The translations under genes were made by a program, and so were the position numbers. A stretch of 61,381 bases of DNA, filler included, from Globobulimina sp. (taxonomy: Eukaryota): assembly GCA_003354225.1 (NCBI GenBank). It is 11 parts of 11 records of this genome, joined end to end, with 100 filler letters (N's around TTAATTAATTAA, not from the genome) between each part and the next. Parts side by side here need not be neighbours in the genome. Positions count along the whole stretch, not along the records: positions 16,795 to 22,286 come from PIVH01000543.1; 10 more parts are not named here. One strand, 5' to 3'. Below are positions 11,902 through 47,011 of this stretch, one piece after another. Position 1 is the stretch's first letter, and every line of letters starts with the position of its first letter. The notes beneath the pieces were generated by a model. That model saw only the letters and a list, made by a program, of their open reading frames with translations, was not told where the DNA came from and searched no databases.

Positions 11902-12272
11902 CTTCTTGTATTTAATGTTAAAAGGCTTAATTTGTTTTTTGGTAATCTGTAATCTGGCACTAGCAACGGTAAAATCCTGATTGTTGAATGTAGATAAGAA
12001 ATTCTTCATCATCATCATCAGTGTTTTTTCAGCCTTCTACTTTGTACTGTGGACAGATGGAGCCATTATGAGGCTGTGGCATGCAAATATAAGCACGATG
12101 AATTTTTGCTTCCTTTATGTTTTTTTTCACCCTTTAACTTTCCCTTTGTCTATACCATTATCTCATAATCGGAGCCATTCTAAAAATAGATTGTCATAAT
12201 CTACCTTAAAAAACTTTTGGACTAATTTCCAACAATTCGTCACAAAGCGCAAAGCACAAAACAGGTTGCCAC

Positions 12273-13898
12273 ATGCTACCAAAATTGAGCAGGTTCTCAT
12301 ATCCATGCACCAATAAACTCAAAATAAAGTGTACACCACTGGCACGCCACAATTATTCATCGCCGGCAGCCTCAGACATAAAAAAACGAGATGGAAGCAC
12401 AGGCGACATCCGCCCCGAACGAGCATTTATAGAATATGACAGACATTCTGAAGAATACAGGCCAGCATTGGAGCGGATACACGATTTCGAAGAGATAGCA
12501 TTGTCCCCCACAGACTTCACCTTTTCACAGCGCCAAGCTCAAGCAGCGCGTTGCATGGATTGTGGCACACCGTTTTGTCAATCGTACACCGGCTGTCCAT
12601 TAAACAATTTAATCCCTGAATGGAACGACTTAGTCTACAAAAACGACTGGAAACAAGCCATAATACGGTTGCACGAAACCAACAATTTCCCTGAATTCAC
12701 GGGCAGAGTTTGCCCGGCTCCCTGCGAAGGTGCCTGCGTCGTGGGATTGGTGGACGACGCAGTCACTATAAAAAACATTGAATACAGCATTGTACATCAC
12801 GCATTTGAGAATAACTACATTTCGGCGCGCATCCCGCCAAACAGAAGTGGCTTACATGTGGCTGTCATTGGCAGTGGACCCTCCGGCTTGGCTGCAGCAG
12901 ACATATTGAACCAATATGGCCATTCTGTGCATGTGTATGAACGGGAAGATATGATTGGGGGCTTACTGATGTACGGCATTCCAAATATGAAGCTGTCGAA
13001 AGATATTGTGATGCGAAGGGTGGACTTGTTGCAAAAGGAAGGCATTGTATTCCACACTAATTCTTCTGTCAACGATGTGGAAGCTTTACACGAAGCTCAT
13101 GACGCTGTGGTGTTATGTATCGGGAGCACTGTGCCGCGAGATGTAGCAAAGGGTATAAAGGGGAGGGAGCTGGAAGGCATACACTATGCGATGGAGTTCT
13201 TGACCAGAAACCAGAAATATTTGTTGATGAATAAGGAGACTGGGAATATGCACAGCAAATGGCATGAAATGGTGAATGCGAAGGGTAAGAATGTGATTGT
13301 GATCGGTGGAGGTGATACGGGCAACGATTGCATTGGCACTGCCATGAGGCATTCGGCGAAATCGATTATTAATTTAGAATTAATGAGTAAGCCACCAATG
13401 CAGCGCAATAATGCAATAAATCCATGGCCGCAATATCCAAAGGTGTTTAGTGTGGATTATGGCCACGAAGAAGTAAAAGCGAATTTTGGTTACGATCCTC
13501 GGAATTATAACATTTTGACAAAGGAGTTTATTGGGGATAGTAAGGGCAATGTCAAAGGGTTGAAAACTGTGCAAGTGGACGGTAATTTTAATGTTGTTCC
13601 AGATTCAGAGAAAGTGTATCCTGCTGAATTGGTGTTGCTAGCGATGGGATTTGTTCATCCTGAAACAGAAATTATCAATGCGTTGAATGTAAATGTTAAA
13701 TATAATAATAAGGATAACAATGGTCCGTTTACTATTGATGCGCAAAGTGAGTATAAGACCAATGTAAATGGTATATTTGCGGCGGGTGATTGTAGGAGAG
13801 GGCAATCGTTGGTGGTTTGGGCTATAGCTGAAGGCAGAGGAGTTGCCAAATCCGTACAAAACTATTTTAAATCTATGGGATATTTAAATCATAAATAA
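12273..13898 (+). CDS. gltD: Glutamate synthase small (beta) subunit with N-terminal presequence-like extension
   Basis: [85 protein letters not shown]. Confidence 0.95.
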
Positions 13899-16794: not shown

Positions 16795-17995
16795 TTTTTC
16801 AACTTTAAGTTCTTGTTTGAATTTCATATAAAATATATTGTTGTTGTGCTGTTGCGTGGTACCGTTAAATATTTGGTAATTGGAAGCGTAGCCACATTTA
16901 AATCGATTGTCACCTTCAAATAACGATAAATATCCGTCCAATTCGCGGCGTTTCTCTTCTTCAAATACATTCAAATCAAAATATAATCCATTGGCAAAGC
17001 AACGGAATACATCAAAATCATCTGCGAAATACAAATAACTGTTGCTGTCAATGCCGCAGTACCGCTTATCCCAACGTTTCAAGCCATCTTCGCATTGCTC
17101 AAAGACCCAAACATAGCCTTCCCGCAATATCTCCATTTTATGCAGCTCATCCTATGCAATATCAAAAACCAAAAACGTTGGTTTCCAAACGGAGTTATAG
17201 TGAGAAACGTACCTGCATCAAATGTGAGAATTTATCCATCCAAACTTGTCTAGATTTATGTGACAAGGTAGCAATTTGAAATTGTTTATCACTGCGACTT
17301 AATTTCACGGCATATTCGCGTCTGTTATTAAAATATCGAAAACGTTCTCTGTCATTATACGTGATCATATTTAATTGTTCCATCTTGACACAATCTTTGT
17401 ATTTTGACTGTGTCTCATCTTCATAGATTCGCAAATGATACTTATCCGTCAATACACACCAGCGAGCTTTCCATTTATTGTTTGCGTTATCGATCAACAA
17501 ATGGGCTTCATGCAATATGTGGCCATACACTGTTGCTTTCACTTTGGTGCTCCACGCAGTCATTGCTTCCGCATCGGCGCATTTTAAGTGCCATATTCGT
17601 TTTGGAGTATACAGTTTAAAAATAAATTCAACTATTTGCGAGGAAGCGGAACTTGAGGTTTTTTCACTTTTTTGATTGTCTTTTAATGAGTGATAGGTTT
17701 TCTGTTCTTCGTAATACATGGCATTCTTTGTAATATCTGGATTATTTACTTCGTAGACGGTATGGGTGTTATCGAATTGATGCGTTGATATTCCTGTGAC
17801 TAAGTGTAAATTTATGAAACCGATTTCTTTGTCTGATGCGGTGGATGGTTTTGTAGAGTAATATTTCAATTTTCTGTCTAGATATAAGATGAAATATCGC
17901 TTCTTCCAGCTTTTGTTCAGTTTTCCTTTCTTATGTAAGTATCCTTCGTATAGTTTGTTGACCAACACCTGTGAATCATCCAATTGTGCTGCCAT
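16795..17995 (-). CDS. Multi-PH-domain protein (at least 3 PH), 3'-partial; intron 17212-17152
   Basis: YEGYLHKKGKLNKSWKKRYFIL, KWKARWCVL, REGYVW..RWDKRYC; phase-0 GT-AG intron joins the ORFs. Confidence 0.9.
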
Positions 17996-18075
17996 GCTCT
18001 GAAAAAGAAAGTACTCATAAACTGTTATATATAATAGTGTAACAAACTTAGTTAGAGACTAAAAGCTATAAAAGA

Positions 18076-19579
18076 ATGTCAAATCCAAGAGAAACAGAAA
18101 ATGAATCCATGATTCAGAAGGATGAGTCATTTGGTATTCGATTCAATTATGCAAAATCGCAATATAGAGATGCGTGGTGCGCCGTAACGTACATAATTCA
18201 TTTAATAATAATGGTTGCGGTGACTGCATATTTAGCCTCTCTCGCGGCCGACGACGTAAATACAAACAGCAATGAAGCAAATGAAGAAACAGAAGAAATA
18301 GAGTTTACGGGAGCAATAGTAGTTGTTATCTCGTGTGCCATCGTCGGATTGGTACTTGGTTTTATTTGGCTAACCATTTTAAAACGATATGCATTGCAGA
18401 TCATTAAAATGATGCTCTATTTGAATATTTGCCTCTGGATTGTATTAGTTATTGTCGGTATTGTGAGCGCACAATTTGTGTTAGCAATCGTAGCTGCTAT
18501 TTTTGTTGTATTTTGGGTGTTATATATGTGGTGCATGCGGGAACGCATCCGATTTGCGTCCGTATTGCTCAGTTTATCCTCGCGTATAGTTTCCGCATTT
18601 CCAGGCACAGTTTGCGTAGCAATCAGTATGATAACCTTGACAGTGATATGGATCATAGTGTGGTTGGTTTGTGCGGGCTCATATATGTTTGTTACAAGAA
18701 CGGAAACAGTGAATCCAGAAAGTGGAGAAACAGAATATGGCACTTCAGCAAATATGTTTGTCGTATTTCTCTTATTCGTCTCATTATACTGGGTCATCCA
18801 GGTCAACTCCAATGTGTCTCATACAACCTCGTGTGGTGTGGCCGCCTCATGGTATTTTACACCGCCTCAGGAGCCAATGGGTGGTACACAGCCTGCATTC
18901 AAACGGAGTATGACAACCTCGTTCGGTTCGATTTGTTTGGGTTCGTTAATTGTTGCTATATTACAAGCCATTCGTGCAATGATCGAGAGCGCGCAAAGAA
19001 AAAGAGATGGCGGTGCTTTGTTATTATGCTTGCTTCAATGTTGTGTGGGCTGTATCGAAAGATGTATTCGCTGGTTTAATAAGTATGCCTTTGCTCATTG
19101 TGGTATGTTTTGTGAATGTTTTTGTTTGAATGCATGTATGTGTTTATTAATAATGCATAGCTATTTATGGCACCTCATTCATGACCTCCGCGGGTGCAAC
19201 CTGGCGATTATTGTCAAGCAGAGGTATTTTAGCATTGATTAATGACGATTTAAGCGGTATGGCTTTGTTTGCGGGCGGCTTAATCAGTGCAGTGTTATGT
19301 GGATTAATTGGTGCTGGCATTGCGTATCCATTTTATGGCGGTACTAGTTCTGGTTCAGATATGATTGTTGCGTTGGCTGTGTATGGCGCTATTTCTGGTT
19401 TTGTATTGACATTGTTAGTATTATCTGCGGTGCGCTCTGCCATTGTTTGTTTATTTGGATGTTTTGCAGAAGAACCAGCAGTGTTATATGAAAATAGAAG
19501 AGGTGATTTTGATGAGTTGGCTGGGGTTAAACCGGAATTTCAAACTGTTTATGATAACTGGGGAATAACATCGGTATAA
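18076..19579 (+). CDS. Choline transporter-like (CTL/SLC44/PNS1) protein; intron 19103-19160
   Basis: YRDAWC, ASWYF, SFGSICLGSLIVAILQ, FNKYAFAHC/AIYGTSF, ALINDDL, CFAEEP. Confidence 0.92.
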
Positions 19580-19651
19580 CTCTTATTATAATTTTAGGAT
19601 ACACCGTGTCTTGTTGTTTATTTTTTGTTTTGTAGTAAGTGCAAGGATAAA

Positions 19652-20365
19652 CTAAGTGTAGTTAGTCAGTGTAGAACATGAATAAATTTCAATCTCGCGC
19701 GTCTTGAAATGACTTTCATCGCCATTTAAATAGTACGGAGCTGGAATGAAATAACCAGTCGCTGCTGTCCATGATAACCGATTTGTATTTGAGTGGGACC
19801 GAATGGCGATATCATTGCCTCCAAAACAGCACATATACAGATTACCACCGTTAAATATTGCATTTCGTCCATTATCTGTGTGTGCAAAAATTTGTGGTGG
19901 ATAATTTTTTGATGATCTGATTAATATTAAAAATGCATCCTTATCATCACTGTAAGTGCTCTTAGTTTTGGTTGCGACAGAAAGATATCCACCAAATACA
20001 TTGTCGGAAACTGTGTGTATTACACTCACAGTATTTCGTATATTGTCACATTTCCTATGCCAATCTTGTACCTTCCAACCATCCCTACTCGCTCTATAAA
20101 TCAAATTCCATTCTTTATATTGAATATTTTTATTTGATTCCTCCATTAAACGTAAAAAGATTGTACTTTCATTCTCGGTCAAAATTAATGAATCAATCAC
20201 TTGGTTTGTTATTTAATATTGTATTTACAACAAAAATATGCATTTCAAATTAACATATTACGTACGGATAAAATAGAAATCAAAACAAATTTTATTCAAT
20301 GATTCGGGAATTATTTGCCCATTTAAATATTGTTGAAAAGATCGCATGTAACCATCAATCAACAA
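19652..20365 (-). CDS. TLDc-domain protein; exon 20365-20266, intron 20265-20200, exon 20199-19652 (first exon not located)
   Basis: LIYRASRDGW, HRKCDN, NVFGGY, DKDAFL, FGGND, EIEIY. Upstream exon reads LLIDGYMRSFQQYLNGQIIPESLNKICFDFYF. Confidence 0.88.
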
Positions 20366-20660
20366 CTAATTATGGAATATTGTGCGTATTTGTTTCTTGA
20401 CAAAGAATGAATCAAATATTGTTAACAATGCTTTGTATTTTAGTCAAGATTAGTGCTGATTGTGACATGATAACGTAAACTCTAAAAACTTCAGCAGGTT
20501 TTTTCAAAAGACTAAGAAATCAATATTGATATTTTACAAACCGAATTAAAAGTAAGTAAATCAACATAAAATGACACACGAAAGAGAGGAGTAACACATC
20601 TGAAAATAATTAACAAAACAAAATGTTTCTATAAACAATAGTATTTAATATACATTATAA

Positions 20661-22271
20661 TTACTGATATTTAACTGCAGACTTATGATACACGGAAGAA
20701 TCAGCTTGTTTATATTTAAATGACTGTAGCTCTTTTAATTTGGATTCATTTACTTTCAAATTATTGCGCAAATATTGCATGGTTGCTTTGTTAACTTTTG
20801 CATGATTCATCCACCAAACAATACGCCATAAAACATTTGCATTCTCCATACATTTATTTTGCACAAAATCAAACGAGAAAATATATTTAATAATATCTAA
20901 TTTGTTCATTTTTACTGCATATTCCAATGGATTAATATTCATATCATCCGCAATCAATATATTATCCAAAAAGGATTTATCTCCGATAATCCACACCAAT
21001 TTTTGTAAAATGCGCAACTGATTAAAATGCACTGTTTGTGTAAGTATCCGATAAACGGAATAATCATTTCCATGAATTCCATCTGAATTTGAATTATTGA
21101 CATATTTATAACCCATAAAATGTATCACCTCTTCACCTGTAATACCCAACTCTGACAATACATAATCAATCACATTCTCGTTATGGCAAAATGCAAATAA
21201 CCATATTAATATTCTATATCTTAGATTGGAATCATTTTTATATTTCTCTTTGATTTTTGTCATATTAAATAGCTTTTCAATGATACCCATATCGCCCCTA
21301 ACAACTGCATTTTCAATGGAATTAATATTATTTGAATTGGATAACAACAAACAATCAATAAATAATGCTTCGTTGATAACAGATTGCAAAAAGGTGAAAC
21401 ATTTCTCATTCCCTTTGATACAAATTGTGTGCAATATAGATTCCCGAAACACGCCATAAGCCATAATATCAGTTTCTTTTTGATTATTAATAACCATCAA
21501 ACCATAAAGCCCCACCACATCATCTTTATTTGCTGCAATCCAAAGTTGTTTATAATTGTCTAACAATGTCGGCAAAATATTGCTGACTGAATTGTCCATA
21601 TATTCTTCTTGTCTTTGTATCGAATATAAATTATGTCCCTTACTCTTGAAATCTTTCATAGTTTGAAGCAAGAATTGGATCTCTCCAATCAAGCTATTCT
21701 GCTCTCCTTTTATTAATACATTCAGCTTAATATCTGCATATTGCCTTTCTTGCACATAATCAGCAAACCTGTTTTTACTGCGACAAATCCCAATAATGTT
21801 GCCACTCTGATAATATTTTACTTTGTTTTTAAGCACATTCAAAGCTAATAACAATGCACGAATGTCATTGAAAACCAAGGCGCACCGATTTATGTCAAGT
21901 ATGCAGGCTGAGGTTGGATACGATTGTTCAAAATAATCATTCTCTGCTTTCGACCGTGCTCTTTGTAGTAATTTAACCGGTCCTCGAATGTAGCCAACAA
22001 TTTTGGCAATTTCACGATTTTCTTTTTCATCGATATCCATATCAATATCAAGATAACCAATATTTGAATGCTTGTCAATGTTAAATATGTTTTGTACCGA
22101 CCTTTGGAACTCATCATCGACAATGTTGCCTAATAAAACCAACTCAGATAAATACTGATTATAATCGTAAAATCGATGACTATTAAAAACAGCGGATGAG
22201 GAACTATTTTCTATCAATGATTGGAATGTATATTTTGGTTTAATTGCATTTGGCACAATATCTTGTCGCAC
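20661..22271 (-). CDS. RelA/SpoT-like (Pol-beta nucleotidyltransferase fold) domain + ankyrin-like repeats, 5'-partial
   Basis: GPVK..RA..K..NDY, ILDINRC, KNRF, YADIKLNV, IGEIQ, H.LY; then ESILHTIC.KGN, NSIENAV.RGD, NPLEYAVKMNK. Confidence 0.7.
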   Translation of the reverse strand: MRQDIVPNAIKPKYTFQSLIENSSSSAVFNSHRFYDYNQYLSELVLLGNIVDDEFQRSVQNIFNIDKHSNIGYLDIDMDIDEKENREIAKIVGYIRGPVKLLQRARSKAENDYFEQSYPTSACILDINRCALVFNDIRALLLALNVLKNKVKYYQSGNIIGICRSKNRFADYVQERQYADIKLNVLIKGEQNSLIGEIQFLLQTMKDFKSKGHNLYSIQRQEEYMDNSVSNILPTLLDNYKQLWIAANKDDVVGLYGLMVINNQKETDIMAYGVFRESILHTICIKGNEKCFTFLQSVINEALFIDCLLLSNSNNINSIENAVVRGDMGIIEKLFNMTKIKEKYKNDSNLRYRILIWLFAFCHNENVIDYVLSELGITGEEVIHFMGYKYVNNSNSDGIHGNDYSVYRILTQTVHFNQLRILQKLVWIIGDKSFLDNILIADDMNINPLEYAVKMNKLDIIKYIFSFDFVQNKCMENANVLWRIVWWMNHAKVNKATMQYLRNNLKVNESKLKELQSFKYKQADSSVYHKSAVKYQ

Positions 22272-22387
22272 AAAATAATATTAATANNNNNNNNNNNNNN
22301 NNNNNNNNNNNNNNNNNNNNNNNNNNNNNNTTAATTAATTAANNNNNNNNNNNNNNNNNNNNNNNNNNNNNNNNNNNNNNNNNNNNA

Positions 22388-44354: not shown

Positions 44355-44732
44355 AAAATTAAAAATTGACATTAATTGCGACGATAAACATGTACAAATT
44401 TGTCAGAATATAAACTTTCTTGTTAACCTAAAAAGTCAGAGGGTTTTTTTTTTAAACACGGGCGCAAACATAACTGAAAAATAGAAATTTAATGCGGCCA
44501 CACTAAAATTTGATGCGGTGCGGTGCGGTGCGGTGTGGGTGTGTCTGGCTGGCTGGCTGTTGGTTGTGATGAGGCACGAGCACGAAGTGCGAGTCTCCTT
44601 CGGATCACAAAAACGAGTGAAAAGATGTTTAANNNNNNNNNNNNNNNNNNNNNNNNNNNNNNNNNNNNNNNNNNNNTTAATTAATTAANNNNNNNNNNNN
44701 NNNNNNNNNNNNNNNNNNNNNNNNNNNNNNNN

Positions 44733-47011
<2,279 letters not shown>

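Follow-up and report, generated by a model that had tools for sequence, protein, structure and literature searches.

A RelA/SpoT-type synthetase domain joined to ankyrin repeats in a nuclear gene family of foraminifera suggests an undescribed eukaryotic alarm or defence signal

Enzymes of the RelV/EAS/Apk branch of RelA/SpoT homologs (RSHs) rapidly transfer pyrophosphate from ATP to purine nucleotides, and EAS, RelV and Apk1 kill cells from within the cytoplasm if they are neither exported nor complexed with an immunity protein (PMC12691689). The bacterial enzyme CapRel is held off in cis (PMC11782079). Small alarmone synthetases (SASs) of eukaryotes are known as the sporadic divRel group of fungi, Dictyostelium and diatoms, and no RSH synthetase partner was identified for the animal Mesh1 hydrolases (PMC3153485). 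Eukaryotic alarmone synthesis has been characterised chiefly in plastids. Here, we analysed a window of 61,381 nt from the foraminifer Globobulimina sp. (assembly GCA_003354225.1) and a gene in it that joins an RSH synthetase (SYNTH) domain to ankyrin repeats. The family to which this gene belongs has no obvious link to plastids and hints at a eukaryotic signal for alarm or defence that has so far gone undescribed. Among eukaryotes, the closest precedent for the family is found in the RelA_SpoT domains of fungal NOD-like receptors (NLRs; PMC4986451).

The window joins contigs of ~5.5 kb end to end, with 100-nt spacers between them, and the SYNTH-ankyrin gene lies on contig C543 (PIVH01000543.1; window positions 16795-22286). 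The 3' part of the gene is a minus-strand open frame (20661..22280; protein P0001) with 539 codons and a stop; it has no intron here, and spliced-type contigs from the sequencing runs X2, X6 and X8 cover it without joints. An earlier note on this DNA had named a series of synthetase motifs, and all of them fall within this single frame in the order claimed. At its 5' side, the gene is truncated by the contig end at 22286. What the window holds of this nuclear foraminiferal gene is its 3' two thirds.

Structure prediction places the domain in the RSH SYNTH superfamily. The AlphaFold (AF2) model of P0001, built on an alignment of 103 sequences, has a mean predicted local distance difference test (pLDDT) of 91.3 and a predicted template modelling score (pTM) of 0.65. 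Residues ~33-230 (21591..22184, minus strand) match RelP, RelQ and CapRel: VIA-align returned Z 12.1 against 6fgk (root-mean-square deviation 2.8, 151 aligned) and again Z 12.1 against 6ewz, and Foldseek matched RelP 6ex0 (E 2.5e-4). The predicted fold is therefore that of an RSH SYNTH domain, as the earlier note had anticipated; the comparison with RelA_SpoT and RelP/RelQ that it had proposed stood at the level of structure, while searches against the PDB sequences gave no match and those against PF04607 none above its cut-off. For the helical and catalytic part of the paralog L002, which was predicted as one unit (pLDDT 89.8, pTM 0.85), the 11 top VIA rows were all RSH SYNTH domains, including RelP, SaEAS, Rel, CapRel and Tas1; their Z ran from 11.3 to 6.9, and the next unrelated row scored 6.2. 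Rel/SpoT chains align with this model almost solely through SYNTH and scarcely through the upstream helical domain, for which the L002 model had no outstanding fold match and the Atlas no usable one. Among viral proteins, the model best matched large ones of phages that are labelled either RelA/SpoT or polyvalent, phage polyvalent proteins being the subject of PMC5512222; the phage and giant-virus distribution was judged from BFVD fold matches only. Downstream of SYNTH, residues ~241-520 match a divergent ankyrin-repeat solenoid (20721..21560, minus strand; VIA-align Z 16.4), which agrees with the ankyrin-like repeats described earlier. The sole Pfam signal on P0001 is Ank_2, under its cut-off (E 1.5e-4), and the SYNTH-ankyrin link (residues 211-240) has a pLDDT of 71-77.

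The active-site motifs, all on the minus strand, were compared with SaEAS, among others, using its solved sequence (8VX3) and the residue list of PMC12691689. A family-specific RQD motif (22260..22268) joins the helical domain to SYNTH, and its R, Q and D are present in 167-168 of 200 near-complete homologs, the rest being mostly gapped. The Syn1-type basic motif GP-x-K103-xxx-R107-xxx-K111 (residues 100-111; 21948..21983) has the K/R/K spacing of Tas1 (6OX6) and of Vibrionaceae proteins, and the three residues would contact the phosphates of ATP. In Syn2 (21882..21896, within the motif LDxNRC at residues 128-133), the putative catalytic D129 and R132 form a D-x-x-R motif aligning with D121 and R124 of SaEAS and, for the arginine, with R330 of Tas1. 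A strand ends in R167-x-K169-N170-x-F172 (21765..21782), where R167 aligns with SaEAS K154. Syn3 (21720..21740, within the motif YADIKLNV at 181-188) contains Y181, predicted to stack on the acceptor, with D183 and K185, and thus reads Y-x-D-x-K as in RelV-like proteins, not SxH or GxN. Syn4 (21675..21683, within the motif GEIQ at 199-202) has the putative catalytic E200 and Q202 aligned to SaEAS E182 and Q184, and the helix motif K212...H216-x-L-Y219-xxx-R223 (21612..21647) repeats the H-x-L-Y-xxx-R spacing of SaEAS. Alignment chains through SaEAS, Tas1 and a Bacillus SAS put the Syn2 Asp, the Syn4 Glu and the Syn3 Tyr at equivalent places. These motifs are not chance resemblances, because they are kept across the 200 homologs (D129 in 199, R132 in 199, K103 in 198, R107 in 196, Y181 in 193 and E200 in 193 with 6 gaps).

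By sequence, the closest sampled relatives of the foraminiferal SYNTH are RelV/EAS-like enzymes of Vibrionaceae on the Tas1/Apk branch, not RelP/RelQ-like enzymes. The likeness to small alarmone synthetases that had been proposed earlier holds for the RSH fold and the catalytic set, whereas RelP/RelQ yield their place as nearest relatives to the RelV/EAS and Tas1/Apk enzymes. A weak tblastn match of the paralog L029 (E 0.5) pointed to two tandem genes of Photobacterium, and hhalign of the foraminiferal profile against a Photobacterium protein reached a probability of 96.6 and E 4.8e-10 (vs. 0.2 with the Bacillus SAS). Fifteen columns (K,R,K; D,R; K,N; Y,D,K; E,Q; K,H,Y) are invariant between the Photobacterium proteins and ten foraminiferal domains. 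The Photobacterium proteins match PF04607 under its cut-off and Tas1 with E 1.2e-5, with the same K-xxx-R-xxx-K..D-x-x-R pattern. As a control for this placement, a hidden Markov model (HMM) built from foraminiferal sequences only scored five Vibrionaceae proteins at 26-42 bits and a Bordetella phage protein at 20, then a MuF-Apk2-type protein at 9, two Deinococcus proteins at 6-9 and eight canonical RSH loci at 4.3 or less. In a 37-row tree, a 100/100 split separates canonical RSHs from RelV, Apk and the 23 foraminiferal rows, which form one group (99/98). The branch call rests on sequence because the structure scores do not part RelP from SaEAS (Z 11.3 vs. 11.1). RelV is represented in these comparisons by proteins of Photobacterium and Enterovibrio. 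The Photobacterium proteins serve as stand-ins for RelV by genus, size, N-terminus and entries in the Apk1 list, V. cholerae RelV itself not having been compared; the Vibrio cluster of PMC12691689 includes VpEAS, to which RelV is 70% identical. The two tandem Photobacterium genes (L034, 2623-3411 and 3631-4455) are RelV/EAS-like genes misannotated as phosphoribosylglycinamide formyltransferase, and the Apk1 match list of PMC12691689 includes Photobacterium proteins that are misannotated in this way (97 mentions). Separately, Bordetella phage PHB04 (L070, 2257-4522) encodes a post-portal protein with a SYNTH of this D-x-x-R type, followed by a small gene and then by an annotated alarmone hydrolase, a layout that resembles Apk2.

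Compared with described systems, the foraminiferal domains share the active-site signature of RelV/VpEAS (PMC12691689; 15 columns, from the Photobacterium stand-ins), which also gave the best HMM scores. Those enzymes, however, are single-domain, carry a signal peptide and occur in 1-2 copies, whereas the foraminiferal proteins are cytosolic and multidomain, number about 60 and share 27% identity with those enzymes; in a simple hydropathy scan, none of 32 long homologs showed the hydrophobic N-terminus expected of a Sec signal. The domain shares K-xxx-R-xxx-K..DY..D-x-x-R with Tas1 and the D, R, basic residue, E, Q and H-x-L-Y-xxx-R with SaEAS, and the model of a foraminiferal paralog matches the Tas1/SaEAS/MuF-Apk2 group in fold (Z 9.5-11.1). 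The arginine three residues after the Syn2 Asp, part of the Apk1/Apk2 signature (PMC12226406), is present (R132, 199/200), but in place of the GxN of Syn3 and the (F/Y)H of Syn4 there are D-x-K and E-x-Q-F-L, and in contrast to the Tas1, Apk and MuF toxins no delivery domain or immunity gene was seen. RelP and RelQ have the fold and the catalytic Asp, Glu and Tyr in common with the family, yet their R-x-K, D-x-x-G-x-R, S-x-H and E-x-Q-x-R signatures are missing, and the foraminiferal proteins are not single-domain. CapRel (7ZTB; fold Z 9.9) likewise combines SYNTH with a putative sensor or inhibitor in one chain, but its sensor is a pseudo-zinc finger, its target is tRNA, and the tree did not include it. 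Fungal NLR RelA_SpoT domains (PMC4986451) and divRel (PMC3153485) are also non-plastid eukaryotic SYNTH domains with repeats and no linked hydrolase; the fungal NLRs, however, have a NACHT switch and an N-terminal domain matching PF04607, whereas the foraminiferal SYNTH is central and shows neither. NACHT or NB-ARC was absent from P0001 and not shown for its paralogs. The HD/TGS/ACT layout of long RSHs does not occur either: Pfam showed no HD domain in P0001, as the earlier note had stated for the visible part, and none of the three among the best 5 families per protein for 38 homologs and 31 paralog frames. By membership criteria, the family is outside the long RSHs, RelP/RelQ, EAS, Apk and the NLRs.

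The SYNTH-ankyrin gene is a nuclear foraminiferal gene. Downstream on C543 it is followed by TLDc, choline-transporter and PH genes, and GT-AG introns of these neighbours are skipped in contigs of X2, X6 and X8, which come from three studies. None of the 10 listed runs is registered as RNA, and these three were taken as RNA because three GT-AG introns are skipped; 4 of the 10 were compared with the locus. Over the P0001 frame, the X2, X6 and X8 contigs differ by substitutions and in-frame deletions of 6 and 12 nt. A GT-AG intron of 54-72 nt lies inside SYNTH in 3 of 5 split paralogs tested, and the guanine-cytosine content at third codon positions (GC3) is 0.30, like that of actin and dynein. 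All homologs with an organism label are from foraminifera (Ammonia; Nonionella and Bolivina, the latter two labels applying to 3/8 of one homolog set and 9/10 of another, with the others unlabelled). A search for non-foraminiferal members yielded 7 proteins, of which those checked were foraminiferal. The Atlas holds similar clusters whose ciliate or diatom label rests on 2-4 members per cluster, as well as a cluster from phages in which PF04607 accounts for 24%. No relative turned up in a metagenome scan, and tblastn of the window domain against phages gave no match. Paralog tblastn matches to a terminase and a Rhizobium plasmid were taken as chance.

The earlier note had left the number of paralogs to be counted, and they proved to be many: the SYNTH family was found on 60 contigs of the genome (49 and 55 contigs with two queries), which is a lower bound. 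Of 51 loci examined, a match was obtained for 50, and in 44 it extended over all 15 key positions; among these 44, 29 retain all 15 active-site residues and 31 retain at least 14. A divergent subfamily (L063, L066, L079-L082, L087) alters chiefly the Syn3 +2/+4 residues and has Arg in place of K212, and perhaps uses another acceptor. Three further copies (L011, L020, L085) have degenerate active sites with 6-10 key residues retained, which makes them candidate pseudo-enzyme regulators or decoys. Beyond this genome, a profile search of 1.84 billion representatives retrieved 2950 clusters at 50% identity (E 0.001), of which the best 150 were inspected. Identity to homologs is 62% in the catalytic core and 28-32% in the ankyrins, and the C-terminal module of relatives is ankyrin, WD40 or RCC1. 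A simple hydropathy scan found a hydrophobic N-terminus in 0 of 32 long homologs (bacterial control 2.55). This combination of a constant enzyme with variable, swappable repeats resembles the pattern of sensor-effector families. Some chains depart from the common plan (P0104, P0118, P0165, P0269, L061), with two SYNTH domains per chain or fusions to coronin-like WD40, calponin-homology, PF13385 and Rdx.

The 5' half of the gene probably lies on another contig, C8462 (locus L094, 1236-2168, plus strand), whose sequence encodes a coiled coil, ankyrins and a helical domain without any HD match. C543 ends in an in-frame TAA (22281-22283, within 22281..22286, minus strand) and overlaps the end of C8462 in frame by 18 nt. 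C8462 terminates in frame at the position homologous to the C543 gene end, and its last 18 nt show 5 mismatches; over the first 14 nt of the overlap there are only two G/T differences, one of them within the TAA. The X2 and X6 contigs extend 898 and 776 nt past 22286, and the 898 nt of X2, which carries two differences without listed positions, would start 17 nt past the C8462 ATG. Because of the overlap and the reach of the X2 contig, we favour a single gene of ~846 codons in which the TAA is probably a contig-end error. The full protein of ~846 aa would probably have ankyrins on both sides of SYNTH, and full-length relatives follow the order coiled coil, ankyrins, helical domain, RQD, SYNTH and repeats. 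C8462 also carries an opposite-strand divergent frame of ~361 codons with WW-like motifs. No immunity, antitoxin or hydrolase gene was seen beside P0001 on C543, the upstream side sitting on the other contig.

Our preferred reading, to which we give a probability of about 0.5, is that these proteins are defence or stress effectors acting on nucleotides, as cytosolic ATP-dependent 3'-pyrophosphokinases gated by their flanking repeats. The cytosolic protein of ~846 aa would consist of a coiled coil, 2-3 ankyrins, the helical domain, SYNTH and a long ankyrin array. D129 and E200 would bind Mg-ATP, and a purine nucleotide stacking on Y181 would receive the pyrophosphate of ATP at its 3'-OH. The product would be (p)ppApp or, slightly more likely in view of the RelV-like Syn3, (p)ppGpp. 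At rest, the helical and ankyrin modules would hold SYNTH off in cis; ligand binding by the variable C-terminal repeats (a pathogen or damage cue) would release it, with an alarmone burst or a drain of GTP/ATP as the outcome. Inhibition in cis is proposed because the foraminiferal copies are cytosolic and transcribed and neither a signal peptide nor a linked immunity gene was seen; the rigid helical-SYNTH unit with its less certain ankyrin link in the models would fit such inhibition, without proving it. Judged from domain layout, family expansion and what the bacterial relatives do, catalysis is very likely, a nucleotide acceptor is rather probable, gating by the flanking modules is somewhat favoured and a role in defence is evenly balanced.

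Several results weigh against this reading. One of six SaEAS active-site positions is changed (N169 to K185). Syn motifs are unreliable predictors of the acceptor (PMC12226406; 10.1101/2021.04.30.441581), and a Syn-motif swap left the acceptor of Apk2 unchanged (PMC12226406). PF04607 was above its curated cut-off in 0 of 24 domains (best E 0.14, in one of the 24), with 0 matches in the genome; neither P0001 nor the foraminiferal profile found an RSH in Pfam, NCBIfam or the PDB sequences, and the sequence tie to PDB chains passes through bridging Vibrionaceae sequences. The tree carries a long-branch warning and was drawn without tRNA-modifying toxSAS, fungal RelA_SpoT domains, the two Deinococcus proteins and P0186. 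Transcription in three studies would demand tight autoinhibition, and a eukaryote-type alarmone hydrolase was not found in this fragmented assembly, where absence proves nothing.

The same chemistry could instead provide a routine second messenger (in anoxia, starvation, or with sequestered plastids or symbionts), with the ankyrins serving localisation or scaffolding. Transcription in three studies, strong conservation across foraminifera, the calponin-homology and Rdx fusions and pseudo-enzyme paralogs of the kind that signalling families have (L011, L020, L085) speak for this; we consider it unlikely, given that ~60 copies with fast-changing repeats exceed housekeeping needs, that the sampled relatives are conflict-type enzymes and that the cognate hydrolase was not found in the assembly. 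Somewhat less likely still is a 3' end of tRNA or another RNA as acceptor, with a translation shut-off like that of CapRel or FaRel2. All characterised D-x-x-R enzymes (VpEAS/RelV, SaEAS, Apk1 and Apk2) use nucleotides (PMC12691689, PMC12226406), and FaRel2 is canonical, with G93 and R95 after D90 (PMC11782079). On the other side, CapRel is among the fold matches (Z 9.9), SYNTH has a large helical domain ahead of it, at the place that FaRel2 uses for tRNA binding (PMC11782079), tRNA-targeting enzymes have no clear sequence signature (10.1101/2021.04.30.441581), and the second subfamily has changed Syn3 +2/+4 residues.

It is also conceivable, though improbable, that the protein acts outward on engulfed prey or intracellular bacteria by triggering their stringent response, an idea already proposed for the fungal NLR RelA_SpoT domains (PMC4986451). 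The targets of (p)ppGpp are known in bacteria and the nearest relatives are exported, but the signal peptide is absent here and a charged alarmone would have to pass from the host cytosol into the bacterium. Finally, contamination by bacterial or phage DNA, or a pseudogene ending at the TAA, is largely refuted and very improbable. Bacterial-looking contigs do occur in the assembly (L031, L032) and the in-frame stop is present in the sequence; however, PH, choline-transporter and TLDc genes on the same contig have introns that reads show to be spliced, SYNTH itself contains GT-AG introns of 54-72 nt in 3/5 paralogs, GC3 is 0.30, the indels seen in further data sets (6 and 12 nt) keep the frame, and transcript contigs continue 776-898 nt beyond the stop.

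Returning to the gated nucleotide effector, a tentative extension is that foraminifera took over an enzyme of bacterial conflict from the RelV/Tas1 branch and domesticated it, giving dozens of sensor-gated alarmone synthetases with varied acceptors and pseudo-enzyme regulators. If true, this would constitute a nuclear-encoded cytosolic (p)ppGpp/(p)ppApp pathway of immunity or death, independent of plastid RSHs and parallel to the cGAS-like receptors of animals, and protist immunity would gain a defence system based on nucleotides. With its size, conservation, transcription and intact active site of the toxin type, this nuclear family would allow a direct answer to whether eukaryotes other than plants produce cytosolic (p)ppGpp or (p)ppApp. 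It also points to a blind spot of detection, with 2950 profile clusters whose tested members are all under the Pfam cut-off. Protist proteins are often automatically labelled as RelA/SpoT-domain proteins in databases. We found no account of the SYNTH-ankyrin family in full-text literature searches whose coverage excludes most subscription journals. Foraminifera are unmentioned in the accessible text of PMC4986451 and PMC3153485, and, in the accessible parts of PMC12691689, the match list contains no Reticulomyxa, Symbiodinium or Emiliania and none of the other eukaryote codes tried, and the main text lacks the word "eukaryote".

Other features of the window and assembly are less directly related to this gene. 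Positions 22100-22286 are the end of C543, followed by an artificial spacer between contigs (22287..22386), and the DNA past it is unrelated. The loci L031 and L032 (G000:C42220 and C8555) carry the two HD_4 matches of the genome, which look phage- or bacteria-derived and point to foreign DNA in the assembly. In the window, a plus-strand frame at 12210-13898 combines Fer4_20 with a pyridine nucleotide-disulphide oxidoreductase, with a GC content above that of its surroundings. A GC-rich minus-strand frame at 44681-46618, which meets a spacer at its 3' end, encodes EF-G/TypA-type GTPase domains followed by thymidylate synthase and is possibly an unusual fusion or foreign DNA.
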